Positions 4,908 through 63,746 of a stretch of DNA of 64,000 bases are shown one piece after another. The translations under genes and the position numbers were made by a program. Every line of letters begins with the position of its first letter. Position 1 is the first letter of the stretch. Source of the DNA: Armatimonadota bacterium (GTDB lineage: Bacteria; Armatimonadota; UBA5829; DTJY01); assembly GCA_017993055.1 (NCBI GenBank), contig JAGONM010000002.1:68821-132820 (forward strand), read 5' to 3'. The notes beneath the pieces are model-generated. The model was not told where the DNA came from. It saw nothing but the letters and a program-made list of their open reading frames with translations, and did not search any database.

Positions 4908-6032
4908 ATGACGCCGACCGCCGAACTCGCGCTCGACACCATCCACCAGCGTCCGGTGAAGGGCATCCCATCCTGGCTGCTCAATGTCATGGAACACGCC
5001 CACATCGAGCGAATCGCCGGCGTCGCTCCGGGTGACTACGTCAGATGCCCGGAGGAGGTCTACCTCGCGATGCAGCGTGCCCTCGGCACATGCCTCCTCG
5101 ACCAGTACATTCCCGAGAACCCGCTCACCATGGGCGACCACGGCTTCCAGGGCAAGGCTCACGGCGTCACAACCGGCGCTGAGGGAATCGTCCTCGACGG
5201 CATGCTCGTGGACTCGCCGGAAGCAGTCGTCGAGCACATGGAGCGGTTCGTCCTCCCGAAGCTCGTATCCGCTGCTGAGGACTACGATGAGGACGCGAGG
5301 GTGGGGCAGATCCTCGCCAGTGAGCGCGCGATCCAGGAGAAGCTCGGCCCTTCGATCCTGAAGGGTCCGTACGGATTCATCGCCTTCCCCGGCTTCGCCT
5401 ACGGAACCTACGGCTATGTGAACTACTTCTCCGCATACGCCCTCTATCCCGACGTGATCGAGAAGCACTTCTCCCTCCAGGCCGATCTCGCGCTCCGGAA
5501 CAACCGGGCCGCCGCCCGCGCGTTCGTCGAGGGAGACCTCCCGCCGCTCTACCGCCTCGATCATGACATGGCGGACTCGCGAGGCACGCTGGTGAACGTC
5601 GAATCGCTCGACCGCCTATGGTTTCCGCACTTCGCGCGATGCCTCGAACCCGTCCTGAAGACCGGTGTCCGCCTGATCTGGCACTGTGACGGCAACCTGG
5701 TGGAGATGGTTCCGCGCCTGCTCGATGCCGGGCTCAGCGGGTTCCAGGGGTTCCAGTACGAGGACGGCATGGACTACGAGCGCATCTGCCGGATGAAGGA
5801 CCGCGAGGGCCGCGACCTGCTCATCATCGCCGGCTCATCGGTCACGCGCACACTCCCCATGGGCACGCCCCCCGATGTCAAGCGCGAACTCGACTGGCTG
5901 GTCGAACGCGGCCCACGGACCGGCCTCTTCCTCGGCGCATCTAGCTCCATCGTCCCCGGAGTCCCCTGGGAGAACCTCCGCACCCTCATCGAAGGCATGC
6001 AGTACTACCGCAAGCATGGCCGTTCCACGTAG
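4908..6032 (+). CDS. uroporphyrinogen decarboxylase (URO-D)-like family protein (MtaA/UroD-fold), function unknown
   Basis: C-terminal region (RLIWHCDGNLVEMVPRLLDAGLSGFQGFQ ... DLLIIAGSSV) matches the URO-D/methyltransferase 'I-H-CG-N' barrel signature. Length about 370 aa. Confidence 0.5.
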   Translation: MTPTAELALDTIHQRPVKGIPSWLLNVMEHAHIERIAGVAPGDYVRCPEEVYLAMQRALGTCLLDQYIPENPLTMGDHGFQGKAHGVTTGAEGIVLDGMLVDSPEAVVEHMERFVLPKLVSAAEDYDEDARVGQILASERAIQEKLGPSILKGPYGFIAFPGFAYGTYGYVNYFSAYALYPDVIEKHFSLQADLALRNNRAAARAFVEGDLPPLYRLDHDMADSRGTLVNVESLDRLWFPHFARCLEPVLKTGVRLIWHCDGNLVEMVPRLLDAGLSGFQGFQYEDGMDYERICRMKDREGRDLLIIAGSSVTRTLPMGTPPDVKRELDWLVERGPRTGLFLGASSSIVPGVPWENLRTLIEGMQYYRKHGRST

Positions 6033-6171
6033 GAGTCGGGTGTTGGGGAATAGGTGCTGGGTCGGCTTACGGTTGATACCCCGAATCAGCCATCCTGCAG
6101 GAGACAGATCGTTTCATGGCGAATGATGTCGAGGTGTGCGCTGCTTAGGAGCACCGGTGGAGGAACTACCC

Positions 6172-6837
6172 ATGCGCTATCCCGCCTTGATCGAGCTTCA
6201 GAAGGAAGTTGTGGCGTGCCGTGCAGCGGCGATCGCCGACGCATCGAACGAGTGTCATGCCGTCACCAAGTACAAGTGCGCAGGTGACTGCGGCCCGATG
6301 ATCACAGTACCTTGGGCTGACCAGATCGATTATCCGGTTCAGGTGCTGACGGTGGGCATCAATCCCAAGTGGACAGACCATCCGGATGAGGCGCAGAAGC
6401 GCATACCTAGAGGAGAGATCGACGGGCCGAAGGCTTTCGACAAATACAAGGAGACCATTCTGAGCGGCTTGCCCGAGGGGACGGGTGTCGCTCACGTCGA
6501 ATTGGTGCAGTGTGGAAGCAAGTACGGAAGACAGGCCAATCGGGTGATCGGCACTTGTCGCAAGAAGTTCTTTGACAAAGTGGTAGCCGAAGTGAAGCCC
6601 AGGGTGATAGTGCCGATAGGAAAGTGGGCATGCGAGCATCTGTACTGGTACAACACGGCTAGCGGCAAGTCCGGTCGTCCCTGTGGCAGCATGCGAGCGC
6701 GACACGGTACGAGCGATCGGGCATGTATCGCCGGGCATGAGTGTGCTATCGTGTTTGTCCTCCAGCCCAGCTGCGGGGTTTCGCACGAAGAGCGGCGAAC
6801 CGCCCGAGAGAGGATCGCCCAGGTGTTTATAGGCTGA
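6172..6837 (+). CDS. uracil-DNA-glycosylase-superfamily-like protein (GINP-motif; possibly DUF1643/MUG-like), in a lower-GC islet
   Basis: Start refined to the second Met (RBS GGAGGA 7 nt upstream). Motif VLTVGINPKW resembles UDG-superfamily motif A (GINPG in MUG/TDG). The C-terminal ~50 aa look degenerate. Codon usage and GC are visibly lower than in flanking genes. Confidence 0.35.
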   Translation: MRYPALIELQKEVVACRAAAIADASNECHAVTKYKCAGDCGPMITVPWADQIDYPVQVLTVGINPKWTDHPDEAQKRIPRGEIDGPKAFDKYKETILSGLPEGTGVAHVELVQCGSKYGRQANRVIGTCRKKFFDKVVAEVKPRVIVPIGKWACEHLYWYNTASGKSGRPCGSMRARHGTSDRACIAGHECAIVFVLQPSCGVSHEERRTARERIAQVFIG

Positions 6838-6853
6838 GTGCTGCCGGCCCGTA

Positions 6854-6874
6854 CATCGCCACTGAGTGGCGATG
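6854..6874. repeat. GC-rich hairpin CATCGCCAC-TGA-GTGGCGATG downstream of the UDG-like gene
   Basis: Perfect 9-bp stem seen directly in sequence. No U-tract on the + strand, so function uncertain (weak terminator or islet boundary). Confidence 0.4.
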
Positions 6875-6886
6875 CAGAATGTCGCC

Positions 6887-6920
6887 AAAATGAAAACGGG
6901 ATGGAGTGCAACTCCATCCC
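6887..6920 (-). terminator. intrinsic terminator of the 14-kb hdr/glt/met operon (hairpin + U-tract on - strand)
   Basis: Perfect 10-bp stem GGGATGGAGT-GCA-ACTCCATCCC at 6898-6920. On the - strand it is followed immediately by GTTTTCATTTTGG (complement of 6887-6897). Lies 43 nt downstream of the metV stop. Confidence 0.55.
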
Positions 6921-6962
6921 GAACAACACCAGTCACACTCTACACTCACCACTCCCGACTCC

Positions 6963-7643
6963 TCACTTCTCAATCCGCTGGTCCTCGCGGACGATCTTCC
7001 TCGCGCCGCCTTCGTGCGACTTCGACCAGTTGGCGAGGGGAGCGGGCTCGGCAAGGCGGTCGAGTTGTCCGAGCGCCTTCAGGCGGTCGTAGATCAACTG
7101 CCAGGCGCAGTCCATGTCCGGGTCAACCTCGCATTTCCCCTCGCGAGCGCCGCCGCACGGGCCGCTGAGCTGTGCCTTCGAGCAGCGGGTGATCGGGCAG
7201 ACCGCGCCGTAGCTCCCGAGCACGCACGTCCCGCATCCGACGCACTTCTCGGTCCAGATTCCCTGCTGCTGCAGGAGTCCCATGAACAGCGTATCGAGTC
7301 CGGCGTAGACCGGCTTGTTCGGGAACCGCTCCGCGATCGCCTGAACGCCGACACCGCATCCGAGAGAGAGCACCGCGTCGGCCTCGAGTATCTCGTCGAG
7401 CGCGTCCTCGATGAACTGGTTCTCGCACTGGCGCTCGATTGTGGCCTCGACGATCGTCTGTTCCGACGCGCCCTTGTCCGTCTTGTTCGCGATCCTGAGC
7501 GCGGAACTGATCATCCCGACCTCGCGCTCTCCGCCCGCTAGGCAGACGGTTACGCAAGTGCCGCATCCGAGCACGAGCACGCGCGGGTAATCGGCGAGCA
7601 AGGCCTTCAGGTCCTGTATGTGTTTGCGGTGAGCAACGATCAT
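6963..7643 (-). CDS. metV: methylene-tetrahydrofolate reductase small subunit MetV-like (zinc-ribbon/MTHFR_C-type Cys-rich protein)
   Basis: Cys motifs LGCGTCVTVC, LGCGVGVQ, CVGCGTCV, CPITRCSKAQLSGPCGG...GKCEV are typical of the MTHFR C-terminal-like MetV of acetogen MetFV-HdrABC-MvhD clusters. Start moved from the track start (7679) to ATG at 7643, which has a perfect AAGGAG RBS 6 nt upstream and leaves the 7677-7699 hairpin intergenic. Confidence 0.65.
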   Translation of the reverse strand: MIVAHRKHIQDLKALLADYPRVLVLGCGTCVTVCLAGGEREVGMISSALRIANKTDKGASEQTIVEATIERQCENQFIEDALDEILEADAVLSLGCGVGVQAIAERFPNKPVYAGLDTLFMGLLQQQGIWTEKCVGCGTCVLGSYGAVCPITRCSKAQLSGPCGGAREGKCEVDPDMDCAWQLIYDRLKALGQLDRLAEPAPLANWSKSHEGGARKIVREDQRIEK

Positions 7644-7676
7644 GTCAGACTCCTTTGGGGGAGTGGTCGAGGCCGT

Positions 7677-7699
7677 CATGCTGAACCAAGTTCAGCATG
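7677..7699. repeat. near-perfect palindrome CATGCTGAAC-CAA-GTTCAGCATG in the mvhD-metV junction (intra-operon stem-loop / operator-like)
   Basis: 10-bp arms with 3-nt loop, read directly. A closely related motif recurs at 16584-16634 inside the same operon. Confidence 0.6.
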
Positions 7700-7715
7700 A
7701 CAACGTCCATTACTC

Positions 7716-8132
7716 CTATACTCCAACGCGGACCGGATTCGGTCCCAGGCGCTTGATTCTCTCCGTCATTGTCTCGACTATCTCCGCGAAGCGGTTGCCC
7801 TCAGCCGAAGAGAGGTTGAACATCTCCAGCCGATCGCCCTCGATGCCGGCTTCGGCGAGTACTTCCTTCGCCAGACCGACCCGCTTCTTCGCGTAGAGAT
7901 TGCCCTCCTCGAAGTGGCATCCTCCCTCGAGGCAGCCAGCGACTATCACGCCGTCCACGCCGTTCTCGAAGGCCTTCATGACGTAGTCTATGTCCACCTT
8001 CCCGGTGCACGGGAGGCGCAGGACGCGCACATTCGGCGGATACTGCAGGCGTGTCGAGCCGGCGAGGTCCGCCGCCGCGTATGCGCAGTAATGGCAGCAG
8101 AGAGCAAGGATTCTCGGCTCGAAATCAGTCAT
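7716..8132 (-). CDS. mvhD: MvhD/FlpD-like [2Fe-2S] electron-transfer subunit (methyl-viologen-reducing hydrogenase delta-subunit family)
   Basis: RILALCCHYCAYAAAD ... LPCTGKVD ... AGCLEGGCHF is the characteristic FlpD/MvhD Cys pattern. 138 aa. Start overlaps the hdrA stop. Confidence 0.8.
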   Translation of the reverse strand: MTDFEPRILALCCHYCAYAAADLAGSTRLQYPPNVRVLRLPCTGKVDIDYVMKAFENGVDGVIVAGCLEGGCHFEEGNLYAKKRVGLAKEVLAEAGIEGDRLEMFNLSSAEGNRFAEIVETMTERIKRLGPNPVRVGV

Positions 8133-11100
8133 CAGCGAGTCACCGCCTCCAGGAGGGCTTCGATTGCGGCCTCCAACTGTTTGTCAGTGAAGTTCCGGAG
8201 CTGGATCGCCTTCGCCGGGCAGGCCGCCGCGCAACTTCCGCAGCCCATGCACTTCGCCGCGACGATCTCCACCCTGTTCTTGCCGTTGACCTCGCTGATC
8301 TCGGGGGCGTCGTAAGGGCAGACCTTCACGCAGGTAAGGCATGAGACGCATTTCCGAACGTCCACGTGGCTCACCTGGCCACCGACGACCATAGTCTTCT
8401 TGCTCAGGATCGTCGCAGCGCGTCCCGCGGCCGCTCGTCCCTGCTGGATGTTCTCCATCGTCGTCTTCGGCGAGTGGGCGCTTCCGCAGAGGAAGATGCC
8501 CTCCGATGCGAAGTCCACCGGCCGAAGCTTCACATGCGCCTCGAGGAAGAACCCGTCCGCGTTGATCGGTATCTTCGCAAGCTCCGAGACGTCCACGTTG
8601 TCGGTCGCGGGCGAAGTGCCTGTCGAGAGAACGAGCAGATCGACCGCCAGGTCCATCGGGACGCCGAGGTCGGGCTCGGTGAACTTGATCCGGAGCGACC
8701 CATCGTTCGAGACCTCGGGCGGCTGCTCGGGATCGTACCGTACGAAGAGCACGCCGAGCTCACGCGCCTTCTGGTAGAGCAGTTCGTTCGATCCGTACGT
8801 CCGCATGTCGCGATAGAGAACGAGTACGTTCGCGCTCGGACTCTGTTCCTTGATGCGGATCGCGTTTCTCACGGCGTCAATGCAGCACATTCGGCTGCAG
8901 AACGGCCGCTCTTCATTGCGGGAGCCGACGCACTGGATCATGGCGACAGTCGGCTTGTCGGACAGCTTGAGATCGCCGGACGCGAGCCTCTTCTCCATCT
9001 CTCGCTGAGTCATTACTCTGGCGTCGTGGCCGTAGAGGTACTCGGTCGGGGCGTACTCCGTGCCGCCGACGGCGACTATCAGGACGCCGTGCTCGACCTT
9101 CTTCGGTCCCTCAGGCGCCTCAATCTCGCTCTCGAACTCCCCGACATGGCCCGAAAGCGTGTCGAGCTTCGACGAGAGATACGTCGAGATCAGCGGATGC
9201 TCCTCGACCATCTTGACCAGTCGTGCGAGCAGTTCCGTCTCCGCGGATCCCTTCAGTCGGCCCCCGAGCGCGTCGGTTTTCTCGACCAGATGCACGCGGA
9301 ATCCCTGATTCGCGAGGGAAATCGCTGCCGTCATTCCGCTCGGGCCGCCTCCGAGAACGAGCGCAGACTGAGTGACCGGCAGCTCCTCGCTCGTGAGCGA
9401 TGTCAATCTCGACGCGCGGGCGACGGCCATTCGCACGAGATCAATGGATTTCTCGGTCGCGGCTTCGGGATCGGCCGAATGCACCCACGAGCATTGGTCG
9501 CGGATGTTCGCCATGTCTACTAGGAACGGGTTCAGGCCGCACTCCCTCGCCGTATCTCGGAAAAGCGCCTCGTGAGTCCTCGGCGTGCAGGACGCGACGA
9601 GCAGGCGGTTGAGGTGATGCTCCTCGATCAATTCCTTGATTCGATCCTGCGTGTTGTCGGCGCAGGCGTAGATCGCGTTCTCGGCATAGGCGACGAACGG
9701 CATGCCTTTCGCCGCCTCGACTACCTTCTCGACATCGACGACCGACGAAATGTTCGTGCCGCAATGGCATATGAACACGCCGATCCTCGGCGGCGCATCG
9801 GCGAAATCGTGTTCGCGCGGATAAGTCTTCTCGACGACCATCGTGCCACGGGCGGGCGCAAGAAGCTCCATCGCCATCGCCGCAGCCGCGCTCGCCTGTG
9901 CGACGGTCTCGGGAATGTCCTTCGGCTCCTGGAACGCGCCGGCGACGAAGACACCGTTCCGAGACGTCGCCACCGTGCCGTCGGTCTGGCAGAATCCGCA
10001 CTCATTGATCTGGACGCCGACCGCGCCCGCGGTCCGGATCGCTTCATCGCTCGGCCTTATGCCGGTCGAGAGCACCACGATGTCGAACTCTTCGTCCACC
10101 GGGACTCCGTCCTTGATGTAGGAGAGCCTGAGCGACTTCGAGCCCGGCATCTCGACGACGCGAGAGACCATGCTCCGCTCGAACCGGACACCGTCGGTCT
10201 TCGCGCGCTCGAAGTATCTGTCGAAATCCTTGCCGTACGCGCGGATATCCGTGTAGAAGATCGTTGCGTCGAGTTCGGGGGAGTGGCTCTTCGCCACGAC
10301 CGATTCCTTGATCGCCGCCATGCAGCAGACCGCCGAGCAGTACGGCTTCTCGCTCGACACATCTCTTGAGCCGACGCACTGAATGAAGGCGATGCGCTTG
10401 GCCTCCTCGCCGTCGGACGGCCTGATCACGTGCCCGCCGAACGGCCCGCTCGCGGAGAGAATGCGCTCGAACTGTACGTTGGTGACGACGTTGGGATACC
10501 TCCCGAAGCCGAACTCGCCGCGCAGTCGAGCGTCGAACTCCTCGTATCCGGGCGACAGGATGACCGCACCGACCTCGATGTCGCGGACGGTGTCCTTCAT
10601 CTCGTGGTTGATCGCTTTGGGCTGGCACGCCTTCACACACTCCATGCACTCGCAGCAGATCCCGCAGGCGAGGCATCTCTCCGCCTCGGCGATCGCATCC
10701 GCGACCGCATAGCCCCTGGCGTGATCGGCCTCGACCCTGACGCTCTTCATGCGCTTCTCGCGGTACTGGGCTCTCTCCAGGTTGCGGTGATCGTCGTCGG
10801 TCCAGATGCGCGAATCGGGCTCGCGCCCCTCGGCGAGGTCTTCACCGTTGATGAACCTGTCTATTGATACGGCCGCCCGGATTCCCGCGCCGACCGCCTC
10901 GCTCAAGGTCCCTGCACCCGCGCACACGTCGCCGCCCGCGAAGATGCCCGGCTTGTTGGTGGCGAGGGTGATCGGGTCGACCTTGAGCAGGCCCCACTTG
11001 TTCAACTCGATCTCCGATCCCTCGCAGAATGCGAGGTCCGGCGTCTGGCCCGTCGCCACGACGGCCTCGTCGAATTCTATCATATGCTCGGAGCCCTCGA

Positions 11101-12517
11101 CGGGCTCGGGCCTTCTGCGGCCGGACGCGTCGCGCTCGTCAGAAAGCTTCATCTTGAGGCATTCGATCCCGGTGAGGACGCCGTCCTTGCCCACGAACCG
11201 CTTTGGGTTCGTGAGGAAGACGAACTTCACGCCCTCTTTGATCGCGTCCTCGACCTCCACCGGGTCGGCGGGCATCTCGCGCTTCGTCCGGCGGTAGACG
11301 ATCGTCACTTCGTTCGCGCCGAGCCGGAGCGCGGTGCGTGCGATATCCATTGCCGCGTTGCCAGCTCCGATGACCGCGACCTTCTTGCCGATCTCGACCT
11401 TCTCGCCGAGGTTGACCTGCTTGATGAACTCGATGCCGGGCCGAACGCCCTTGAGGTCTTCGCCCTCGATGCCGAGCCCCGAACTCTTCTGCGCGCCGAC
11501 TCCGACGAAGACTGCCTCGTAATCCTTCAGCAGGTCGTCGAGGGTCAGCCCGGGCCCGACCGGCGTGTCATACTTCACCTCGACGCCGAGATCGAGGATG
11601 TGGCCAATCTGGTCGTCAAGAATGTCTCTGGGAAGTCGGAAGTCGGGGATGCCGGCCCTCATCATGCCGCCCGGGACCGGAAGCGCCTCGAGGATCGTGA
11701 CGCCGTATCCCTTGCGCGCGAGGTAGTCCGCCGCGCCGAGTCCCGCCGGACCGCATCCGATGATCGCGACCCTCTCGGATCGGCTGACAGGAGCGTTCTC
11801 AGTGGTGCCGGCCGGAGCCTGATCGAGCGCGAACTTCTTCAGCTCGCGGATCGAGACCGGATCGCCGTATCGTCCCTGCTGGCATTCGGCCTCGCACGGG
11901 CGATGGCAGACGTAGCCGCAGATGAGGGGCAGGGGATTATCCTTGCGGATGATCTCCGCCGCCTCAGCGAACTTGCTCTTCGCGATCAACGCTATATACG
12001 CCTGAGCGTTCTGGCCCATTGGACACGCCGACACGCACGGCGGGCGCTTGCGTTTGTCGATGACGTGAGCGTTCGGGACCGCCTGCGCGGTAATCTTGTG
12101 GATCGCGGTCGTTTTGCTCAGCCCGCGGTTGAAGTCGTCCGGCACCATGACGGGGCAGACTTTCTCGCAGTCGCCGCACGCGTTGCACTTCTCGATGTCC
12201 ACGAAGCGGGCCTTCTGCCGCACCTTCACGCGAAACGCACCGGGCTCGCCGCTCATCTCTTCGATCTGTGACTGAGTAAGGATCTCGATGTTCAGATTGC
12301 GAGCTGCCTCGACGAGCTTCGGCGAGACGATGCAGGTGGCGCAGTCCCCGGTCGGGAAGGTCTTGTCGAGTTGCGCCATCTTCCCGCCGATGGTCGGCGA
12401 CTTCTCGACGAGGTAGACCCTGAACCCCGAGTTGGCGAGGTCGAGCGCCGACTGAATCCCGGCGATTCCGCCTCCACACACCATTACTGCGCCAACCGTA
12501 TTCTTGTCCGTACTCAT
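8132..12517 (-). CDS. hdrA: giant HdrA-type flavoprotein fusion: HdrA FAD/Fe-S module + embedded GltD/NfnB-like NAD(P)H-FAD module + second HdrA-type module + C-terminal 2x[4Fe-4S] ferredoxin
   Basis: N-terminal GAVMVCGGGIAGIQSALDLANSGFRVYLVEK (FAD). HdrA inserted Cys motif TFPTGDCATCI. GltD/NfnB-like block (DNPLPLICGYVCHRPCEAEC ... RVAIIGCGPAGLGAADYLARKG ... VAVIGAGNAAMDIAR). Two HdrA signatures FIQCVGSRDVSSEKPYCSAVCCMAA and MIQCVGSRNEERPFCSRMCCIDA. Second FAD fold ALVLGGGPSGMTAAISLANQG. C-terminal CVSCLTCVKVCP / CMGCGSCAAACP. 1461 aa. Confidence 0.85.
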   Translation of the reverse strand: MSTDKNTVGAVMVCGGGIAGIQSALDLANSGFRVYLVEKSPTIGGKMAQLDKTFPTGDCATCIVSPKLVEAARNLNIEILTQSQIEEMSGEPGAFRVKVRQKARFVDIEKCNACGDCEKVCPVMVPDDFNRGLSKTTAIHKITAQAVPNAHVIDKRKRPPCVSACPMGQNAQAYIALIAKSKFAEAAEIIRKDNPLPLICGYVCHRPCEAECQQGRYGDPVSIRELKKFALDQAPAGTTENAPVSRSERVAIIGCGPAGLGAADYLARKGYGVTILEALPVPGGMMRAGIPDFRLPRDILDDQIGHILDLGVEVKYDTPVGPGLTLDDLLKDYEAVFVGVGAQKSSGLGIEGEDLKGVRPGIEFIKQVNLGEKVEIGKKVAVIGAGNAAMDIARTALRLGANEVTIVYRRTKREMPADPVEVEDAIKEGVKFVFLTNPKRFVGKDGVLTGIECLKMKLSDERDASGRRRPEPVEGSEHMIEFDEAVVATGQTPDLAFCEGSEIELNKWGLLKVDPITLATNKPGIFAGGDVCAGAGTLSEAVGAGIRAAVSIDRFINGEDLAEGREPDSRIWTDDDHRNLERAQYREKRMKSVRVEADHARGYAVADAIAEAERCLACGICCECMECVKACQPKAINHEMKDTVRDIEVGAVILSPGYEEFDARLRGEFGFGRYPNVVTNVQFERILSASGPFGGHVIRPSDGEEAKRIAFIQCVGSRDVSSEKPYCSAVCCMAAIKESVVAKSHSPELDATIFYTDIRAYGKDFDRYFERAKTDGVRFERSMVSRVVEMPGSKSLRLSYIKDGVPVDEEFDIVVLSTGIRPSDEAIRTAGAVGVQINECGFCQTDGTVATSRNGVFVAGAFQEPKDIPETVAQASAAAAMAMELLAPARGTMVVEKTYPREHDFADAPPRIGVFICHCGTNISSVVDVEKVVEAAKGMPFVAYAENAIYACADNTQDRIKELIEEHHLNRLLVASCTPRTHEALFRDTARECGLNPFLVDMANIRDQCSWVHSADPEAATEKSIDLVRMAVARASRLTSLTSEELPVTQSALVLGGGPSGMTAAISLANQGFRVHLVEKTDALGGRLKGSAETELLARLVKMVEEHPLISTYLSSKLDTLSGHVGEFESEIEAPEGPKKVEHGVLIVAVGGTEYAPTEYLYGHDARVMTQREMEKRLASGDLKLSDKPTVAMIQCVGSRNEERPFCSRMCCIDAVRNAIRIKEQSPSANVLVLYRDMRTYGSNELLYQKARELGVLFVRYDPEQPPEVSNDGSLRIKFTEPDLGVPMDLAVDLLVLSTGTSPATDNVDVSELAKIPINADGFFLEAHVKLRPVDFASEGIFLCGSAHSPKTTMENIQQGRAAAGRAATILSKKTMVVGGQVSHVDVRKCVSCLTCVKVCPYDAPEISEVNGKNRVEIVAAKCMGCGSCAAACPAKAIQLRNFTDKQLEAAIEALLEAVTR

Positions 12518-12526
12518 ACTCGTACT

Positions 12527-13384
12527 CTACCTCGCCAACACTCTCGACGGGTCCGTCATCAACTTCCCGATTCCCAGCTCGTCGTCGGAGAGTCCGAACG
12601 CGTGCCCCAGAAGCTGGGTGAAGTAGAACACCGGCAGGCCGAACTGCTCGCCGGTCGCCTTTTCGATATCCGACTGCCGCAGATCGAGGTTCGTCTGGCA
12701 GAGCGGGCAGGCCACCGCGATGCAGTCCGCTCCGCTCTCCTTGGCCATCCGCAGGATCTCGCCGCTAAGGCGCTTGACGGTGTCGGTTCGCGTGATAGAG
12801 AAACTCGCGCCGCAGCACTCCGTCTTGTACGGCCATTCGATCGGCTCCGCGCCCGCGGCCTCCAGGAGAATTTCCATCAACTGCGGGTCCTCCGGGTGGT
12901 CGGCGATGCTGAGTTCGCTCGGGCGGGTGAGTAGACAGCCGTAGTAGCATGCGACCCTCATCCCGCCGAGGGAGCGCGTGACCGCGTCCTTGACTTCCTT
13001 GGGGCCGATGTCCTCCAGAAGCACCTGCAGCAGATGCCGCACCCTGACCTTGCCCTCGTACTCGCGCCCGATCGTCTTCGCCACCTCAGCGCGCAGCGAC
13101 TCATCCTCTCTTATCGCAAGGTTCGCCGAAGCGAGCCGTCCGTAGCAGGCCGCGCAGCACACGACTACGTCCTGACCGGCGTCCTCGGCGATCGCCAGGT
13201 TTCGGGCTGGAAGCGACGCCGCCAGCAGAGGATCCGTGGCATGAGCCGGAGACGATCCACAGCACGTCCAGCCGGGAATCTCCTCGAGCCTGACTCCGAG
13301 CGCCTTGGCGACTGCGAGTGTCGAGGCCTGGAAGTCCGAAGCCGTCGATTCGAGCGAGCATCCCGGGAAGAAGGAGTATTTCAT
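12527..13384 (-). CDS. hdrB: heterodisulfide reductase subunit B-like (two CCG domains)
   Basis: CCG-domain Cys signatures WTCCGSS, VVVCCAACYG, CYYGCLLTRP, ECCGASFS, ACPLCQTNLD. 285 aa. Confidence 0.85.
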   Translation of the reverse strand: MKYSFFPGCSLESTASDFQASTLAVAKALGVRLEEIPGWTCCGSSPAHATDPLLAASLPARNLAIAEDAGQDVVVCCAACYGRLASANLAIREDESLRAEVAKTIGREYEGKVRVRHLLQVLLEDIGPKEVKDAVTRSLGGMRVACYYGCLLTRPSELSIADHPEDPQLMEILLEAAGAEPIEWPYKTECCGASFSITRTDTVKRLSGEILRMAKESGADCIAVACPLCQTNLDLRQSDIEKATGEQFGLPVFYFTQLLGHAFGLSDDELGIGKLMTDPSRVLAR

Positions 13385-13944
13385 CGCCGTGCCCTCCTTG
13401 CGTTCCGGACTCTCTCAAAGATCGAGGCCACCGCGCCGCGTCCCTCGGTCGATGGCGGGAGAAGCTTCATCTTGCCCTTCAGCAACATCGACGGGAACTT
13501 GGCGAGATCGCTCCAGAAGTCTCTCGCCCGGAGCTTGTATACGGCCATGAGCCCGAGTTCATACGACCGGCCGAACCGCTTCACCGAGCCGAGCATCGTC
13601 TCGTTGAAGATCTTCACGCGTTCCAGGTCGCCGGGCGCCGACTCCGCCATCGAGCGCAGAGCATCCACCAGGGCAGGGGTATCAACCTGCATCGGGCAGC
13701 GCGACACGCAGGTGTTGCACGATATGCACGCCCAGATCGCCTTGCTCTCGAGGATCTGCTTCTTCATCCCCAGCGCGGCCATCCGGTTGAGCTGATGCGG
13801 AAGGATATCCGTCTCTTGGCGCATCGTGCAGCCCGACGAGCATCTTCGGCACTGCAGGCAGAGCGTCAGGTTCAGCCGCCCTTCAGGGTCGACCTCCCTG
13901 AGCAGGCCATTGTCTATCCTCTCAATGGTGATTGTCTTACTCAT
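13381..13944 (-). CDS. hdrC: heterodisulfide reductase subunit C-like (2x[4Fe-4S] ferredoxin)
   Basis: CLQCRRCSSGCTM and CISCNTCVSRCPM motifs. Start refined to ATG at 13944 (MSKTITIE...), which overlaps the upstream gene stop by ATGA. The longer track ORF would run 111 nt into the upstream CDS. Confidence 0.75.
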   Translation of the reverse strand: MSKTITIERIDNGLLREVDPEGRLNLTLCLQCRRCSSGCTMRQETDILPHQLNRMAALGMKKQILESKAIWACISCNTCVSRCPMQVDTPALVDALRSMAESAPGDLERVKIFNETMLGSVKRFGRSYELGLMAVYKLRARDFWSDLAKFPSMLLKGKMKLLPPSTEGRGAVASIFERVRNARRARR

Positions 13945-16558
13945 CTGATCCCTTACCAGCGTTCGAATCATCGTCCACGTGGCCGACGACCCCGACCTTC
14001 GACGCCGGAGCGACCTTTCGGTAGACCTTCGCCGGCTCGCGAAGTTCTCCGTCAACCGTCAGCAGCCGGGAGACCGGGATGCCGAAGAGTTGCTCGTTGT
14101 CCTCGAGATACGGCAGGATCAGCTTCCAGTCCGCATCTGACAACTCGCGGTACTCGCCGCCGTTGAGCTGTTCGTCGTCGCACAGCCGATGCGGGTCTCG
14201 GACGTAGATCGCTCCACCCGAGGCCAGCGAGAACAGGTTCGAGCCGGAGTACGGCGTCTCCAGGTCGGTGACGTTGCCGTCATCATCGAACTTGATGCCG
14301 TTCAGTATGACGAACCCCCCGCCCGTGAGCGGATCGCCCGCCATGAATGATTCCGCCAGGAAGTCGAGGCATGTGCCGTTGATGACCGCTTTCGGCCGTC
14401 CCACGCCGTTGATCAACGGTCGTCCGGCGGCGTTGCCCTTGACGAAGACCTTGCCGCCCTTCGCGCCGTACATGAACGTCTGGCCGACGTCGCCGTGGAT
14501 CACGAGGCGGCCTTCCTTGATGATCTGGCCGACCTGGTCTTGGGCGTTCCCATGAACGATGACCGTCATGCCGTCGAGGCCCGAGCCTAGGTAGTCGCCG
14601 GTGCTCCCGTAGGCGTCTATGGTGACATCGTGCGTCGCCGGGCCGAACCCGCAGCCGAGGAACCTCTGCCCCACGTAGCCGTGGCAGATGAACCGCTTCC
14701 ATCCCAGTTCCTCAGCTCTGACCACCAGCCGGGAGTCGCAGTCGTCGCCCTCGGGCGGGAAGTCGTGCGCGTTCACGACGAGCACTTCCTCCGGGCCAGT
14801 GGGGGCGCGGAGCGCATCCCTGGTCTCCCAGTCGATGCGCGCATATACTGAAGAGGGTTCTCCGGCGATAGACGGCATGGACTCGAAGACCGCTCTCAGG
14901 CATCCGTTCAGCAGCTGGAGGATCGTGCTTCGCTTGGTCGTTCCGGTCGGATACCGGCGGTCGATCAAGAGAGTCAGTCCGTTGATCGCGGCCGTGCGCT
15001 CGGAGTCAGTCATCGGACCGGCGGCCAACTCGGAGCACAGGCTCACCAATCCCTTCATCTCCGCCGTCAGAGCCGCCGACTTCCCGGCCTCGAAAAGCGC
15101 GAATCCGGTCTCATCAGCAAGAATCTCGGCGGTCGCGTGTCCCAGTCTGCAATCCGCGATCTGCAGTCTGCAGTCCGGCCTCTCGCCCGCCTTGACTGTC
15201 TTCTGCCTTCCAAACTTATCCACGCAGGAGAGCTTGTAGCCGCCGTTGCCGTCCGGACTCACGTTGAAGATGAACGATCCGCCGTCGGTGTAGCTTCCTC
15301 CGCGGGCGTTCCAGTACTCATCGGCGACCGTGCAGAACCGACTGTCTTCCTTCGCCAGGCTCGCGAGTGTGGCGTCGATGGCTTGCTTTTCGCTGCAGAC
15401 AAGGCCGATCTGCACCTCGCCGTCCTGGATCGCGAACACCTGAGGCCGAAGCATCGCCGTGTCCGTGATGCCTAGGAGTTGGAACGCATCGTTCGCCGCG
15501 TCGTTGCGTGCAATGATGAAGAACCACGGACCGTCCGGCGAGCCGTGGATGTGGCTCGTCTGGATGCGGTGGTACGGGTCCTTCTTCGCTTCGGGCAGCA
15601 TATCGAAGTCGCGCTCCATCGTAGGCGCAAGGCCCTCGATGATGTACTCCAGCGGGTACTTGTACACACGGTTCCAGAGGTCAAACACGAGGATCGAGAC
15701 CTCGGTGTCCGTCAGGAAGAGCGGCCTGATGTTCCTCTGAGCCAAGTACTCGGTTACCGAATAGTAGTTCGCGAAGTCGCCGTTGTGGACCAGCGCCTCG
15801 TTCAGCCCGCAGAACGGGTGAGCGCCGCCGGGATGCCAGACTCGACCGCGAGTCGGGTATCGCTGGTGGGCGATCCAGACGTGCGCCTTGAAATCCTCGA
15901 GCTTGTAGTATGTGACGATCTGCTCGGCATAGCCGACGATCTTGAGGATCAGCATGTTCCGTCCCTGCGAGAGGACGAAAGCCTGCTTGTCACCGAGCGA
16001 TGCGTAGTACTTCGAGTTGAGCTCGAACGAGTTCTGGTTGACGAACTCATCCTCGATGTCTCGTGCCGGCAGTCCGGCCAGGCCGCGCTCGTCGGCAAAC
16101 TTCTTGATGGCATCGGGCTTCGCGCGCACGAAGTACTGCATGACGTCCGGCGGCTGGACCTCCATGCCCGGGATATCGTGGAAATCCTCGATTCGCGGGA
16201 TCATCTGCGCGTGGTCGACGTTGAACATCGGGTTGATGAACTCGGCTTCGACGGCGTTACGGCAGGCAGGATCGAGAAGTGCGATCTGCAGGATGTAGTC
16301 ATCCCGCAGAATCTCTTTCGAGACCCCAAGCCGCTCGGCATCGAGCCCGACGGCCGCGATGCCTCCGCCCTTACCGTTGCCGCGGTTGTGCATCTGGACA
16401 GACGGCTCGTAGATGTGCCTGCCGCTTACCGGGATGCTGCACGCGAACCCGGTGACCCCGCAGCCGCCTTCCTCCTCGGTGTGAGGAGGCTGCTGGCATT
16501 TCCATCCGTCCATCATCCAGCGTCGGCTCTCTAAGATTCTCTTCGCGAAATCGTTCAT
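13937..16558 (-). CDS. glutamate-synthase-like fusion: N-terminal class-II glutamine amidotransferase domain (GltB1-type) + C-terminal GXGXG domain (GltB3-type)
   Basis: N-terminal GGCGVTGFAC (Ntn Cys) ... HQRYPTRG ... LVHNGDFANY are GATase-2 motifs. C-terminal GCGFGPATHDVTIDAYGSTGDYLGSGLDGMTVIVHGNAQDQVGQIIKEGRLVIHGDVGQTFMYGAKGGKVFVKGNAAGRPL is the glutamate-synthase GXGXG domain. 873 aa. Confidence 0.75.
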   Translation of the reverse strand: MNDFAKRILESRRWMMDGWKCQQPPHTEEEGGCGVTGFACSIPVSGRHIYEPSVQMHNRGNGKGGGIAAVGLDAERLGVSKEILRDDYILQIALLDPACRNAVEAEFINPMFNVDHAQMIPRIEDFHDIPGMEVQPPDVMQYFVRAKPDAIKKFADERGLAGLPARDIEDEFVNQNSFELNSKYYASLGDKQAFVLSQGRNMLILKIVGYAEQIVTYYKLEDFKAHVWIAHQRYPTRGRVWHPGGAHPFCGLNEALVHNGDFANYYSVTEYLAQRNIRPLFLTDTEVSILVFDLWNRVYKYPLEYIIEGLAPTMERDFDMLPEAKKDPYHRIQTSHIHGSPDGPWFFIIARNDAANDAFQLLGITDTAMLRPQVFAIQDGEVQIGLVCSEKQAIDATLASLAKEDSRFCTVADEYWNARGGSYTDGGSFIFNVSPDGNGGYKLSCVDKFGRQKTVKAGERPDCRLQIADCRLGHATAEILADETGFALFEAGKSAALTAEMKGLVSLCSELAAGPMTDSERTAAINGLTLLIDRRYPTGTTKRSTILQLLNGCLRAVFESMPSIAGEPSSVYARIDWETRDALRAPTGPEEVLVVNAHDFPPEGDDCDSRLVVRAEELGWKRFICHGYVGQRFLGCGFGPATHDVTIDAYGSTGDYLGSGLDGMTVIVHGNAQDQVGQIIKEGRLVIHGDVGQTFMYGAKGGKVFVKGNAAGRPLINGVGRPKAVINGTCLDFLAESFMAGDPLTGGGFVILNGIKFDDDGNVTDLETPYSGSNLFSLASGGAIYVRDPHRLCDDEQLNGGEYRELSDADWKLILPYLEDNEQLFGIPVSRLLTVDGELREPAKVYRKVAPASKVGVVGHVDDDSNAGKGSDE

Positions 16559-16583
16559 GTTATCTCACTACGACCGTCGTGCC

Positions 16584-16634
16584 GAACTTGGTTCAGCATC
16601 CACGGGATTGATCCTGAGTCAAGTTCAGGATGAC
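16584..16634. repeat. two copies of the GAACTTGGTTCAGCAT / CAAGTTCAGGATGAC palindromic motif family in the gltB2-gltB1/3 junction
   Basis: 16584-16599 GAACTTGGTTCAGCAT is identical over 16 nt to the reverse complement of the 7677-7699 element. 16611-16634 ATCCTGAGTCAAGTTCAGGATGAC contains CAAGTTCAGGATGAC, versus CAAGTTCAGCATGAC at 7688-7702. Both sit in a 91-nt gap between translationally uncoupled genes of the same operon. Confidence 0.6.
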
Positions 16635-16649
16635 GGTCCTTGCCGTTCG

Positions 16650-18188
16650 TCAACGCTCGTAGTCCGCATGCTCGAGGAGATCGGATCTCCCTCGAAGCTC
16701 CTTGATATCCTTCATGCCGAACCTGCTCAGTATGTCCACGAGTTGAGTGCGCCACGCGTTCAGCATGTTGATCAGCCGCTGCGTCGCCCACTCGAGCGTC
16801 ATCTTCTCGACCATCTCCGGGTTCGTGGATGCGATGCCTCGCGCGCATCCCTTGCCGCTCTCGCACCTGGCGCAGCGTATACATCCCAGTGCGACCATCT
16901 CCGGCGTGCCTATCACCACACCGTCCGCCCCGAGGGCGATCGCCTTCGCCAGGTCCCACGGCGTGCGCACCCCGCCTCCGACGATGAAGGCCACCTCGTC
17001 CCGGATGCCTTCCTCGACCAGGAAAGTGTGCACCTTGGAGATCGCGTATTCTATCGGCATGGCAATGTTTTTCTTTGCGATCTCTGGGGCAGCTCCCGTC
17101 CCGCCATAACTCCCGTCGAGGTGGATGATGTTTGCGCCTGCGTGATAGGAGCCGACGGCAACCATGTCCACGTCAACCGGGGTCGAGACCTTGCACGAGA
17201 CGAGCGCTCGCGGGTTGATGTGCTTTATCCAGTCCAGATGCTTCTTGTGGTCCTCGACGGAGTAGACGCTGTGGAAAGGGAACGGCGAGAAGAGCGGGGT
17301 CCCCGGCACTGCCTCGCGCATCAGGGCGACGGCGGGCGTATTCTTGTCGCCGAGCAGATGTCCGCCGAGGCCCGGCTTCGCTCCCTGCGCGTACTTGAAC
17401 TCGACAATCGGCGCCATACCGATCGTCTCCTCGCGCACGCCGAACAGGCCCGTCGCCACCTGGGTGATCATGTGCTCGCTGTACGGGAACAGCCGCTCGG
17501 GATAGCCTCCCTCGCCTGTACAACTGAACGTGTTCCATGCCATCGCCGCCCGGGCCTTGGCCAGCATGGTGATGGGGCTGACGGAGCCGAACGACATGCC
17601 GCCGCCGTAGACGGGGATGTCTATGGTGATCTCCGGCCTGCCGTCCTTGCGTTTGTTCAGTTCGATCGAGGTGTTGATCTCGGACGGGTCGGTACGCGGG
17701 CCGCTCTCGGGGAACAGGAACCGCATTCGGTCGAAGCCGCCCCCGGAATTGCCGAACTCCGCCTCCAGTTCTCCGTCGGGCACCTGCCCGGTCTCGGCCA
17801 TGTGCCAGTTGCAGAGTATCAGGTCGGCGGTCCACCGGTAGTCCCCGAGCGACTTGTAGATCGGGGTAGTCTCGATGCGGAGCGCCTTCTGAGGGCAGAT
17901 TACGACGCAGTACGTCCCGTTCGCCTTGCACTTCTCGGCGGTGCACAGATGATCCAACCCGCTGAGGAAGTCCACGTAGCCTTCTCGGCGCACGTGAACG
18001 CCGCGCGGGCAGACCTCGATGCACTTCCCGCACTTGATGCATGCCGCGCTCCGTTGGATGCGGTACTTGCTGAGGTTGTTCCGGAACCTGTCGGGCGCCG
18101 GACGGACCTCGCGCTTCGGGGGGTATTCCACCCCGAGATCCGCAACTTTCCCCGTATGTATCCTGCCTGGATCTATGGTCGAAGCCAT
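16650..18188 (-). CDS. archaeal-type glutamate synthase FMN/Fe-S subunit (GltB2-like) with N-terminal 2x[4Fe-4S] ferredoxin domain
   Basis: N-terminal CIKCGKCIEVCP ... CVVICP. FMN/synthase domain motifs GGGMSFGSVSPITMLA, IIHLDGSYGGTGAAPE, IVGGGVRTPWDLAKAIALGADGV, and a Cys cluster CIRCARCESGKGC. 512 aa. Confidence 0.8.
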   Translation of the reverse strand: MASTIDPGRIHTGKVADLGVEYPPKREVRPAPDRFRNNLSKYRIQRSAACIKCGKCIEVCPRGVHVRREGYVDFLSGLDHLCTAEKCKANGTYCVVICPQKALRIETTPIYKSLGDYRWTADLILCNWHMAETGQVPDGELEAEFGNSGGGFDRMRFLFPESGPRTDPSEINTSIELNKRKDGRPEITIDIPVYGGGMSFGSVSPITMLAKARAAMAWNTFSCTGEGGYPERLFPYSEHMITQVATGLFGVREETIGMAPIVEFKYAQGAKPGLGGHLLGDKNTPAVALMREAVPGTPLFSPFPFHSVYSVEDHKKHLDWIKHINPRALVSCKVSTPVDVDMVAVGSYHAGANIIHLDGSYGGTGAAPEIAKKNIAMPIEYAISKVHTFLVEEGIRDEVAFIVGGGVRTPWDLAKAIALGADGVVIGTPEMVALGCIRCARCESGKGCARGIASTNPEMVEKMTLEWATQRLINMLNAWRTQLVDILSRFGMKDIKELRGRSDLLEHADYER

Positions 18189-18200
18189 CTAAAACCCCTG

Positions 18201-19556: not shown

Positions 19557-19557
19557 G

Positions 19558-20406: not shown

Positions 20407-20798
20407 TCAGTCACCTCGTCTGCGAAACGCGTCATCTCATCAACCGCCGAGTCGAAACTGCGCGGCTCCATACTGCCCGGCTGGAACATCCGGACGCAGT
20501 CGGGACCCAGGCCCGATTCTGTAAGATACTCGCGTGCGGTCTCCATGCGCTTGCCGGCCCTCAAATTCCCCTCCAGCAACCTGCACTCGCCTTCGGGGCA
20601 GGCGAGCAGGCATACCTTGGAAGCGCCGCCCTCGAATGCCTTCAGGATGTAGCGGGGGTCAATCCGCCCGCTACACGGCACCGGTTCGATCGCGACGTCG
20701 GGCCGATGTCCCAGCTTCGCCAGCGAATCCGGGACCCGTCCGTTCGGAACGGAGTTGCGGCAGTAGTACACGCGGACAGCTATTCGGTCTCCCTGCAT
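20403..20798 (-). CDS. mvhD: second MvhD/FlpD-like [2Fe-2S] subunit, first gene of the operon
   Basis: RIAVRVYYCRNSVPNG ... PCSGRIDPRYILKAFEGGASKVCLLACPEGECRL is FlpD/MvhD-like. Start set to the in-frame ATG at 20798, because the track start at 20840 is GTG on the printed sequence. Stop overlaps the metF start (ATGA). Confidence 0.7.
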   Translation of the reverse strand: MQGDRIAVRVYYCRNSVPNGRVPDSLAKLGHRPDVAIEPVPCSGRIDPRYILKAFEGGASKVCLLACPEGECRLLEGNLRAGKRMETAREYLTESGLGPDCVRMFQPGSMEPRSFDSAVDEMTRFADEVTE

Positions 20799-20831
20799 AT
20801 TCGGTGTCCCCGTCTCCCAGACAATGCAAAG

Positions 20832-20871
20832 CCCACCCACAATCCACCTGTCCCGGTGGTACTATGGGTGG
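20832..20871 (-). promoter_or_regulatory. structured 5' leader of the operon (nested hairpins CCCACCCA...TGGGTGG / CCACC...GGTGG)
   Basis: Nested inverted repeats read directly. They lie between the predicted promoter (about 20960-20988) and the mvhD2 ATG (20798). Confidence 0.35.
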
Positions 20872-20959
20872 ACTCCCAATCGTCCTTCCTGGGCAAGACT
20901 GCGGTGAATCACTCAGGCCAGATCACGCACGCGGCCGCCGTCGGCCACGCTGCAGAGAC

Positions 20960-63738: not shown

Positions 63739-63746
63739 GGCCTGAC

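Follow-up and report, generated by a model that had tools for sequence, protein, structure and literature searches.

A tandem HdrA gene with an embedded cassette

We describe hdrA-L, a gene on a 64,000-nucleotide stretch of DNA from an Armatimonadota bacterium (contig JAGONM010000002.1 of assembly GCA_017993055.1). The whole stretch is referred to here as the window, and all positions are given in its coordinates. The gene lies on the minus strand, from 8132 to 12517, as one unbroken open reading frame (ORF) with an ATG start and 1461 codons. On the strength of the ORF, Pfam and NCBIfam matches, structure alignments and residue conservation, it encodes a 1461-residue tandem HdrA with an embedded GltD/NfnB-like cassette. 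It is the eighth gene of a packed ten-gene unit on the minus strand, mvhD-metF-three gltB-like genes-hdrC-hdrB-hdrA-L-mvhD-metV (6897-20988), whose members mostly overlap and are never more than 91 nt apart.

A first-pass annotation, made from the letters of the DNA alone, had read this ORF as an HdrA with a GltD/NfnB-type block and a duplicated HdrA core. The single ORF stands, and all the motifs that were quoted are present. They comprise the FAD fold GGGIAG (residues 15-20), the four-cysteine motif CNACGDCEKVC (111-121), DNPLPLICGYVCHRPCEAEC (193-212), GCGPAG (254-259), GAGNAA (384-389), CVGSRD...CSAVCC (714-732), a second FAD fold GGGPSG (1056-1061), CVGSRN...CSRMCC (1196-1212) and two copies of CxxCxxCxxxC (1390-1400 and 1423-1433). 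Two dinucleotide-binding GxGxxG folds had been claimed for the block; the first is indeed of this form (GCGPAG), but the second is GxGxxA (GAGNAA).

In Pfam and NCBIfam searches the protein shows three FAD folds, one Fer4_20 domain (residues 149-234), a full Pyr_redox_2 domain and a terminal dicluster domain. Fer4_20 is of the dihydropyrimidine dehydrogenase/GltD type. The top NCBIfam models are HdrA2/HdrA, which match in four stretches with E-values down to 4e-283, and the GltD-like model PRK12771 matches residues 141-644 (E=4.6e-157).

Alignment to solved HdrA and NfnB/GltD structures, with Methanothermococcus thermolithotrophicus HdrA (5odc_A) as the HdrA reference, allowed us to set the domain boundaries and map the cofactor ligands. 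Residues 11-156 correspond to HdrA 146-291 (161 bits), that is, the start of the thioredoxin reductase (TrxR)-like flavin domain and the first cluster motif of the inserted ferredoxin domain. A GltD/NfnB-like block of 464 residues follows (157-620), so that the block is present but is about 465 residues long and not about 430, as first estimated. HdrA then resumes: residues 621-895 match HdrA 293-572 (219 bits), 906-1128 match HdrA 4-234 (a 197-bit stretch) and 1136-1451 match HdrA 318-649.

On the DNA, all on the minus strand, the N-terminal part of HdrA module 1 (residues 1-156) covers 12050-12517 and holds, by alignment to 5odc_A, the FAD fold, the sequence DCATC (C59/C62) and the first cysteine motif of the inserted ferredoxin domain (C111-C121). 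The NAD(P)H-FAD-2x[4Fe-4S] cassette (157-620) covers 10658-12049, as delimited by matches in the PDB and by relatives that lack the insert. The C-terminal part of module 1 (621-904) covers 9806-10657 and holds, again by alignment to 5odc_A, C621/624/627/631, E684, CVGSRD...CSAVCC and K737. Module 2 begins with an MvhD-like N-terminal Fe-S domain (905-1040; 9398-9805), which aligns with 5odc_A 4-130 and carries C917, C919, C952, C977 and C1009. It continues with a TrxR-like FAD domain (1041-1380; 8378-9397; 5odc_A 131-234 and 318-568) with E1175, CVGSRN...CSRMCC and R1217, and ends in a 2x[4Fe-4S] ferredoxin domain (1381-1461; 8135-8377; 5odc_A 569-649), in which Pfam places Fer4_7/Fer4_9 at 1389-1438.

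The GltD/NfnB-like cassette

The cassette breaks HdrA between residues 291 and 293 of the reference, which lie between the two cysteine motifs of the inserted ferredoxin domain. Its best match in the PDB is NfnA of NfnABC (9n5u_A, E=2e-120), followed by 9bov_A (E=7e-108), StnC (8oh5_C, E=1.8e-101) and NfnB (4ylf_B, E=2.5e-97; 5jca_L, E=2.7e-88). True GltD (2vdc_G, E=4.7e-60) and dihydropyrimidine dehydrogenase (E=1.5e-43) are more distant.

Residue conservation was assessed here and below in an alignment of 48 full-length relatives of hdrA-L, taken from species-representative genomes and metagenome contigs. In the cassette, C161, C165, C204, C208, C212, C615 and C618 are invariant, as are the FAD-binding glycines G254/G256/G259, the NAD(P)H-binding G384/G386, and R294. 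Position 200 is Cys in 38 of the 48, position 209 is Glu in 44 and position 389 is Ala in 47. R294 corresponds to R187 of Thermotoga maritima NfnB, which contacts the flavin N5. Judged by these ligands, the predicted cassette keeps all the residues required of an NAD(P)H-FAD-2x[4Fe-4S] module.

A cysteine pair in the sequence AEAERCLAC (C615, C618) follows the cassette domain, as it does in StnC, NfnA and 9bov, whereas in NfnB it precedes the domain (residues 32-42). With the pair in this C-terminal position, both ends of the cassette would meet at one cluster. Relatives of about 1010-1045 residues align solely to residues 1-155 and 623-1460 of hdrA-L, so the cassette is a discrete unit with those borders. 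Such cassette-free tandem HdrA proteins occur at loci L070, L074, L079, L061, L051 and L063, and since three of them adjoin mvhD-metV-metF, cassette-bearing and cassette-free forms coexist in type IV-like clusters.

An acidic residue at the end of beta-2 of a Rossmann fold is the classical determinant of NAD binding. At this place in the NAD(P)H fold (residues 407-411; nt 11285-11299), hdrA-L and 32 further relatives, 33 of the 48 in all, have Y-R-R, and the other 15 have C-L-E. All four solved GltD-type cassettes with a printed alignment (NfnA 9n5u, StnC 8oh5, NfnB 4ylf and NfnI 5jca) have YRR, and NfnABC, StnC and NfnB bind NADPH according to the literature. From YRR together with the GxGxxA motif (G384-A389) we would predict NADPH over NADH as the substrate of hdrA-L. 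The YRR/CLE split suggests NADPH-type and NADH-type subfamilies; as a simple rule for predicting whether NADPH or NADH is used, it could be checked on the Moorella enzyme discussed below. We could not find the NADPH-type motif of hdrA-L described in the literature that we searched.

Two complementary HdrA modules

The HdrA-type Fe-S cysteines are invariant among the 48 relatives, including C714/C727/C731/C732 of module 1, C1196/C1207/C1211/C1212 of module 2, and C917, C919, C952 and C977 of the N-terminal domain of module 2. All eight cysteines of the C-terminal ferredoxin domain are conserved. The glycines of the module 2 FAD fold (G1056/G1058/G1061) do not vary either; of the FAD motif in module 1, two positions were tabulated and both vary: residue 16 is Gly, Ala or Ser, and residue 19, Ala in hdrA-L, also differs among relatives.

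The first-pass annotation had spoken of a duplicated HdrA core. There are indeed two HdrA modules, but the structure alignments show them to be complementary halves and not plain duplicates. Module 1 has no N-terminal Fe-S domain; it keeps the inserted ferredoxin domain and the motif LDKTFPTxDCxxC, in which C59/C62 correspond to Cys194/Cys197 of M. thermolithotrophicus HdrA. Module 2 has the N-terminal and C-terminal Fe-S domains and lacks both the inserted ferredoxin domain and the LDKTFPTxDCxxC motif. Each of these HdrA elements (the N-terminal Fe-S domain and its Cys197 partner, the inserted and the C-terminal ferredoxin domains) thus occurs once per chain, shared out over the modules.

In methanogen HdrA, Cys197 of one protomer completes the cluster in the N-terminal domain of the other. 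With the Cys197 equivalent only in module 1 and the N-terminal domain only in module 2, one [4Fe-4S] cluster would be expected to bridge the modules of hdrA-L. Chadwick et al. (2022) described the same complementary loss in the Moorella protein and in fused HdrA. From its domain content, the chain is most readily taken as a putative covalent pseudo-dimer of HdrA and not as a simple duplication.

The C62 position draws further attention through six Desulfobacterota loci (L013, L021, L024, L050, L052 and L055), in which a TGA at this position is the sole in-frame stop; they read DCAM* where hdrA-L reads DCATC (codon C62, nt 12332-12334). This TGA likely encodes selenocysteine, at what would be the ligand of the cross-module cluster, in keeping with the selenoprotein HdrL, and such a replacement of C62 argues that the residue is functional.

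The environment of the bifurcating flavin, which the first-pass annotation had singled out for attention, differs between the modules. E684/K737 of module 1 correspond to E356/K409, the markers of the bifurcating flavin in M. thermolithotrophicus numbering, and are invariant among the relatives. In module 2, position 1175 is Glu in 38 of the 48, hdrA-L included. Position 1217 (nt 8867-8869), the equivalent of K409, is Lys in 41 and Glu in four, and is Arg in hdrA-L and at loci L086 and L054. Module 1 therefore has the full bifurcating-flavin signature, and module 2 has it with a conservative change.

Relatives of hdrA-L

A long ORF of this kind could also arise from a mis-assembly or a frameshift that fuses separate hdrA, gltD and hdrA genes, a risk that the first-pass annotation had itself raised. 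The distribution of the gene excludes such a false merger. In the protein database we found more than 120 homologues of the same length (1440-1650 residues, 50-99% identity), with the same Pfam content and domain order and from independent assemblies. About 45 full-length copies come from species-representative genomes. Among cultured bacteria, Desulfotomaculum, Desulforamulus and Desulfoscipio carry the type in complete genomes, one of them that of Desulfotomaculum nigrificans CO-1-SRB (CP002736.1). Moreover, the junctions fall within a single ferredoxin domain of which both halves are conserved. We found nothing in favour of an artefact, rejected it on these grounds and give it next to no probability.

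A genome scan returned at least 597 relatives of hdrA-L in more than 20 phyla, archaea among them; no Moorella locus was among those listed. The nearest named relatives are proteins of Armatimonadota metagenome-assembled genomes (MAGs), at about 75% identity, and full-length alignments with Desulfobacterota relatives give 46-49%. A protein of Ca. Hakubella aligns with hdrA-L end to end (48% identity, 3% gaps). As a hdrA-mvhD-metVF-hdrCB cluster has been published for Ca. Hakubella, we infer that the aligned protein is the hdrA product of that cluster. A homology search seeded with a relative from Bacillota returned many Desulfotomaculia and no Moorella, and a protein search for the E696/K750/E1204/K1246 pattern of Moorella HdrA found none. 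In the sulfate reducer D. nigrificans CO-1-SRB (locus L091, 7001-14482), another context for the protein, hdrC, hdrB and a 1480-residue hdrA-L are directly followed by genes for a 1007-residue tandem HdrA-like protein and an FrhB/FdhB-like protein.

The ten-gene operon

The genes around hdrA-L (hdrC, hdrB, mvhD and metV) overlap or are separated by at most 36 nt. Upstream of the gene, hdrB (12527-13384, minus strand) has two CCG domains (Pfam CCG E=4e-25, in two stretches; TIGR03288 E=7e-63) with CCG motifs at residues 41-43 and 190-192. It is preceded by hdrC (13381-13944, minus strand; Pfam Fer4_17/Fer4_8; TIGR03290 E=2.9e-14), a 2x[4Fe-4S] protein with two CxxCxxCxxxC motifs. Its likely start is the ATG at 13944, although the mechanically called ORF reaches 14055; its homologues are 184-195 residues long. 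Downstream, the start of mvhD1 (7716-8132, minus strand) overlaps the hdrA-L stop by one nucleotide and its product is a [2Fe-2S] MvhD/FlpD protein (Pfam FlpD E=5e-50; NCBIfam VhuD E=7e-53). The last gene of the operon is metV (6963-7679, minus strand), which encodes an Fe-S subunit like the C-terminal part of methylenetetrahydrofolate reductase (MTHFR; Pfam DUF5981, 'Methylene-tetrahydrofolate reductase C terminal', E=1.1e-34). MetV genes that adjoin HdrA-L elsewhere encode proteins 42-72% identical to this subunit.

The operon opens with mvhD2 (20403-20840, minus strand), for another MvhD/FlpD-like [2Fe-2S] protein (Pfam FlpD E=1.3e-23; NCBIfam VhuD E=9e-17), and a metF-like MTHFR gene of 282 codons (19558-20406, minus strand; Pfam MTHFR E=1.2e-18; MTHFR part of NCBIfam PRK08645 E=6.7e-41), whose product is 32-52% identical to those of MetF genes beside HdrA-L at other loci. 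Matching by sequence, we found no solved structures for MetF and MetV.

Three GltB-like genes follow, all on the minus strand. The first (18201-19556) encodes a divergent GltB-like TIM-barrel paralogue, similar to the FMN domain and with an N-terminal ferredoxin-like motif of two times four cysteines (Pfam Glu_synthase E=2.4e-16). Its cysteines lie at C31/34/37/42, C67/70/72/73/77 and C368/371/374/380, and its matches in the PDB are remote only. The second (16650-18188) is the FMN subunit of an archaeal-type glutamate synthase with an N-terminal ferredoxin-like domain (Pfam Glu_synthase E=9e-90; PDB 1ea0_A/2vdc_A E=9.4e-48). The third (13937-16558) encodes an 873-residue protein in which a class-II amidotransferase-like domain is fused to a GXGXG domain of the GltB C-terminal/FwdC-like type (Pfam GXGXG E=1.8e-15, GATase_6 E=2.9e-5). 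It has the sequence CGVTGF at residue 33 and weak similarity to the PDB, and its relatives are named glutamate synthase domain 1/3. Among the glutamate-synthase parts, then, the FMN subunit is clear, and the amidotransferase and GXGXG matches are weak, with C33 as a possible nucleophile. GltB carries a three-cysteine [3Fe-4S] motif; a GltB-like protein here has a four-cysteine motif in its place.

Upstream of the first gene lies a sigma-70-like promoter, TTGACA-17-TATACT (20960-20988, minus strand), which is a consensus match only, at 11 of 12 positions. No other promoter-like site lies in 6000-22000; shuffled sequence gives a mean of 2.8, so a single site in these 16 kb is no enrichment. At the other end, 42 nt past the metV stop, an intrinsic-terminator-like hairpin, likewise a consensus match only, has an 11-bp stem with seven GC pairs and runs into the T-tract TTTTCATTTT (6897-6921, minus strand). 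Gene spacing and this bracket of promoter and terminator argue for a single predicted transcription unit, with metF, metV and the GltB-like genes inside it. A search for an S-adenosylmethionine, tetrahydrofolate (THF) or glutamine riboswitch or a T-box upstream of the operon found none, the only RNA matches being to tRNAs, at the window's far end, and by chance to a microRNA. We also considered a metF directly after metV, as in Moorella, and ruled it out: the ORF at 6166-6936 (minus strand) belongs to no family and overlaps the terminator, and the metF-like gene is upstream.

Neither the operon nor the rest of the 64-kb window contains a hydrogenase or formate dehydrogenase gene, which extends to the whole window what had been noted for the operon. 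The window also lacks genes of the NfnA(PyrK) type, the partner of NfnB, and of the HydBC type, to which the StnAB partner of StnC belongs; of GltB, the partner of GltD, there are relatives in the operon. MetF, MetV and the glutamate-synthase-like module had been missed in the first-pass annotation, and they probably tell what the complex acts on.

Related loci and the GltB-like trio

The ten genes occur in the same order at seven further loci. Those at L001 (an unclassified bacterium), L086 and L085 stand at 74%, 87% and 59%; the others are from Sumerlaeota (L002), Hydrogenedentes (L083), Pirellulales (L009) and Chloroflexi (L030). A partial locus, L084, is consistent with the order. In a first-look neighbour-joining tree, the HdrA-L proteins of the ten-gene loci form one clade, separate from those in hdrA-mvhD-metV-metF contexts (about 20 loci) and from those with hdrCB and mvhD alone. 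The hosts are Armatimonadota-like bacteria, Hydrogenedentes, Sumerlaeota, Planctomycetota and Chloroflexota, and the DNA that we saw gives no sign of acetogenesis.

The GltB-like trio is itself a widespread unit. It occurs alone, with neither Hdr nor GltD, at L087. In Desulfobaccales, Syntrophales and a proteobacterial MAG it stands in the order glnA-mvhD-trio (L088 4757-12631, L089 1414-9337 and L090 2985-10628), where the mvhD product that precedes it is of the mvhD2 type; in L090 the trio is followed by carAB. This linkage supports the glutamate-synthase assignment of the trio and a role in glutamine and glutamate metabolism, with electrons supplied through MvhD. We did not find the ten-gene arrangement or an mvhD-linked glutamate synthase in the full-text literature that we searched, although this collection was limited and the negative is a weak one. 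The conserved ten-gene operon with a glutamate-synthase-like module seems to be undescribed.

Comparison with known systems

The GltD-containing, tandem, NAD(P)H-linked architecture of HdrA has already been published, for HdrL in 2009, by Mock et al. (2014), Kremp et al. (2022) and Chadwick et al. (2022), and as type III HdrA in 2025. The closest published counterpart is HdrA of Moorella thermoacetica (Moth_1194, YP_430051; 1487 aa, 162.8 kDa), which belongs to the 'type IV' methylene-THF reductase MetFV-HdrABC-MvhD as one of its subunits. According to later accounts of Mock et al. (2014), the hdrCBA-mvhD-metVF genes encode a complex whose HdrA binds two FAD and oxidises NADH; no turnover from NADH on to methylene-THF was observed, and an additional acceptor was proposed. 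Kremp et al. (2022) describe this 1487-residue HdrA with a layout as in hdrA-L and with E696/K750 and E1204/K1246. By these descriptions, a GltD domain interrupts module 1, and module 2 has an MvhD-like N-terminus and no inserted ferredoxin domain, as in hdrA-L; the spacing of 42 residues between the Glu and Lys of module 2 equals that of E1175/R1217.

The gene neighbourhoods also agree in part. As in Moorella, hdrA-L has hdrC, hdrB, mvhD and metV as neighbours and metF in the same operon; hdrC-hdrB-hdrA-mvhD-metV is contiguous and all six gene types are present, although order and content differ. The operon of hdrA-L has four genes more than hdrCBA-mvhD-metVF, namely the second mvhD and the three GltB-like genes. 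Judging by the 64-kb window, its host is, unlike Moorella, no acetogen.

HdrL of Desulfobacterium autotrophicum (Strittmatter et al.) is also a large fusion of HdrA with a GltD-type NAD(P)H-binding part, followed by mvhD, and has been proposed as an entry point for NADH into Hdr chemistry; it is expressed in Syntrophobacter. HdrL1 and HdrL3 are selenoproteins, whereas hdrA-L has Cys at C62, and the HdrL loci are linked to dsr, fdh or hdrABC where hdrA-L is linked to metF, metV and GltB-like genes. Archaeal HdrA9-11 of ANME-1 ('type III HdrA') have an NfnB/GltD insertion at the same site of the inserted ferredoxin domain, and the tandem fusions known as 'type II' or HdrA3/4 show the same complementarity of Cys197 and N-terminal domain. 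A 2025 survey distinguishes type III (GltD insert) from type II (tandem) and suggests that ferredoxin is denied access by the insert, with the clusters given over to NAD(P)H instead. Unlike these archaeal types, hdrA-L joins both modifications in one chain, and its partners differ; in ANME HdrA3/4, the module order is reversed relative to hdrA-L, with the N-terminal domain on the N-terminal module.

The cassette resembles StnC (of Stn from Sporomusa ovata), NfnA and NfnB in its YRR and GxGxxA motifs, the Arg near the flavin N5 and its two [4Fe-4S] clusters, and it shares with StnC and NfnA the 'EAxRCLxCG' cysteine pair after the domain. It is hosted here by HdrA and not by a NuoG/FdhF-like protein, and it lacks a partner of the NfnA(PyrK) or HydBC type. 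As the StnC structure shows, the homologous cassette there takes in NADPH without bifurcation and feeds a linear Fe-S wire. HdrA of S. ovata (942 aa) and BamE of Geobacter metallireducens also have two TrxR-like flavin modules per chain but no GltD cassette, and S. ovata HdrA showed weak NADH diaphorase activity only.

In view of these precedents, hdrA-L changes nothing that is known about HdrA. Its value is that of a well-resolved example, with an exact insertion point, complementary modules and conserved ligands. Likewise, the earlier suggestion of a complex linked to pyridine nucleotides is supported, by the cassette ligands that are kept and by the NADH site that the same architecture forms in Moorella, but it restates published knowledge.

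Proposed role and alternatives

We think it likely that the hdrA-L protein, going by its domains, ligands and operon, would serve as the flavin and Fe-S core subunit of a soluble Hdr-type complex and as the point at which pyridine nucleotides enter it. NAD(P)H, probably NADPH, would reduce the cassette FAD, and with the cassette spliced between the two cluster motifs of the module 1 ferredoxin domain, the hydride would be split there into single electrons. These would run through two cassette clusters and two clusters of the split ferredoxin domain, about four [4Fe-4S] clusters in all, to or from the HdrA flavins. The cluster of the N-terminal domain, completed by C62, would join the two HdrA modules. 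The flavin-domain clusters would hand electrons to HdrC and HdrB, from which MetV and MetF would receive them for the reduction of methylene-THF; as in methanogens, the one C-terminal ferredoxin domain would be the docking site of MvhD proteins. In the ten-gene clade, the other electron outlet would probably be the co-transcribed GltB-like proteins, reached via the second MvhD. Of this picture, the order of the domains, the place of the insertion, the conserved ligands and the conserved operon are read from the sequences; the direction of electron flow, bifurcation at either HdrA flavin, specificity for NADPH and contact with the GltB-like proteins are proposals.

The first-pass annotation had seen in the cassette an in-cis module that takes the place of a hydrogenase. 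An NAD(P)H module is present, but it is not simply a donor entry: it sits in the inserted ferredoxin domain, which in methanogen HdrA is the ferredoxin-reducing branch, and the operon keeps two MvhD proteins. A cassette on the ferredoxin branch leaves two schemes. NAD(P)H may be the sole donor, with bifurcation, as in the scheme of Mock and Thauer, or, in line with a proposal for Sporomusa and Moorella, NAD(P)H and another donor may be confurcated onto methylene-THF.

Several points weigh against this assignment. The host looks like a polysaccharide-degrading heterotroph and the 64-kb window has no Wood-Ljungdahl genes, so the physiological role cannot be acetogenesis. Moorella HdrA is specific for NADH, whereas the motifs of hdrA-L predict NADPH. 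The flavin-N5 Lys is Arg (R1217) in module 2, unlike Moorella, and that flavin may therefore behave differently. Adjacent in Moorella, metF and metV here lie at opposite ends of the operon with the three GltB-like genes between them. The apparent likeness to Moorella HdrA is drawn from the published description of that protein, and hdrA-L and its clade are known as sequences alone. Finally, the third substrate and the coupling mechanism of the Moorella enzyme are still unidentified in the literature.

It is conceivable, though rather unlikely, that the cassette is primarily the missing small (beta) subunit of the GltB-like glutamate synthase, so that the operon would encode an Hdr-scaffolded NADPH-glutamate synthase with MetF/MetV as a second client. 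This differs from the role proposed above in emphasis and does not exclude it. Three GltB parts lie in the operon with no free-standing gltD, and its sole GltD-like sequence is the one within hdrA-L; the arrangement is kept at the seven ten-gene loci and the partial L084, in several phyla and in one HdrA-L clade. The trio behind glnA and mvhD in L088-L090 fits nitrogen assimilation and an electron supply through MvhD. The same cassette is, however, found in many HdrA-L proteins with no GltB genes nearby, including those in Moorella-like metVF contexts, and its E-values are 1e-97 to 1e-120 with NfnA, StnC and NfnB as against 5e-60 with true GltD, which places it nearer to the former, all input modules. 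Of the three GltB-like proteins, two have diverged greatly from the GltB that has been characterised, and the trio also stands alone, free of Hdr and GltD, in L087. An HdrL-type NAD(P)H:disulfide reductase, in which HdrB would reduce the disulfide of a protein or small molecule, DsrC-like or other, and MetF, MetV and the GltB-like proteins would be mere neighbours, strikes us as quite improbable. HdrB does retain both CCG motifs, which bind the non-cubane clusters of the disulfide site, many relatives have solely hdrCB and mvhD as neighbours, and a link from NADH to DsrC or sulfite reduction has been suggested to run through HdrL together with MvhD and HdrABC. Yet the window holds no dsr or other sulfur genes, the spacing and the promoter/terminator bracket argue for one unit with metF, metV and the GltB-like genes, and the ten-gene unit is conserved across phyla.

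If the hdrA-L protein is the core and NAD(P)H entry point of a type IV-like complex, the co-transcribed MvhD-GltB-like module is the obvious extra client in the ten-gene clade. In a bolder reading, to which we would give only a small chance, ten subunits would assemble around HdrA-L into a single machine that unites the Hdr-type MTHFR of this clade with an archaeal-type glutamate synthase dependent on MvhD. The cassette would let NADPH in; the flavins, possibly bifurcating or confurcating, would then supply two sides with electrons: methylene-THF by way of HdrCB and MetVF, and 2-oxoglutarate plus glutamine by way of the second MvhD with the GltB-like proteins. If this were true, the glutamate-synthase module would be a concrete candidate for the third partner of type IV MTHFR, missing since 2014 and still so in 2026, and there would be an Hdr-linked route of nitrogen assimilation in non-acetogenic heterotrophs. 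More broadly, a type IV core co-transcribed with a glutamate-synthase-like module and a second MvhD provides a testable candidate for the partner reaction, and the ten-gene operon suggests that Hdr complexes serve anabolic, NADPH-dependent reductions.

Other features of the window

Outside the operon, the segment 21468-55715 contains genes for seven sulfatases, GH116, GH4, GH32/43-like, DUF2961, BNR/sialidase-like and pectate-lyase-like proteins, and oxidoreductases of the GFO/IDH/MocA type; the host looks like a degrader of sulfated polysaccharides. A secretin gene is also present in the rest of the window. Past the operon terminator, on the plus strand (4908-6837), lie a URO-D/MtaA-like gene of 374 codons, with a weak Pfam match, and a 233-codon ORF that belongs to no family. 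Four clustered tRNA genes (63653-63977, plus strand) stand at the end of the window.

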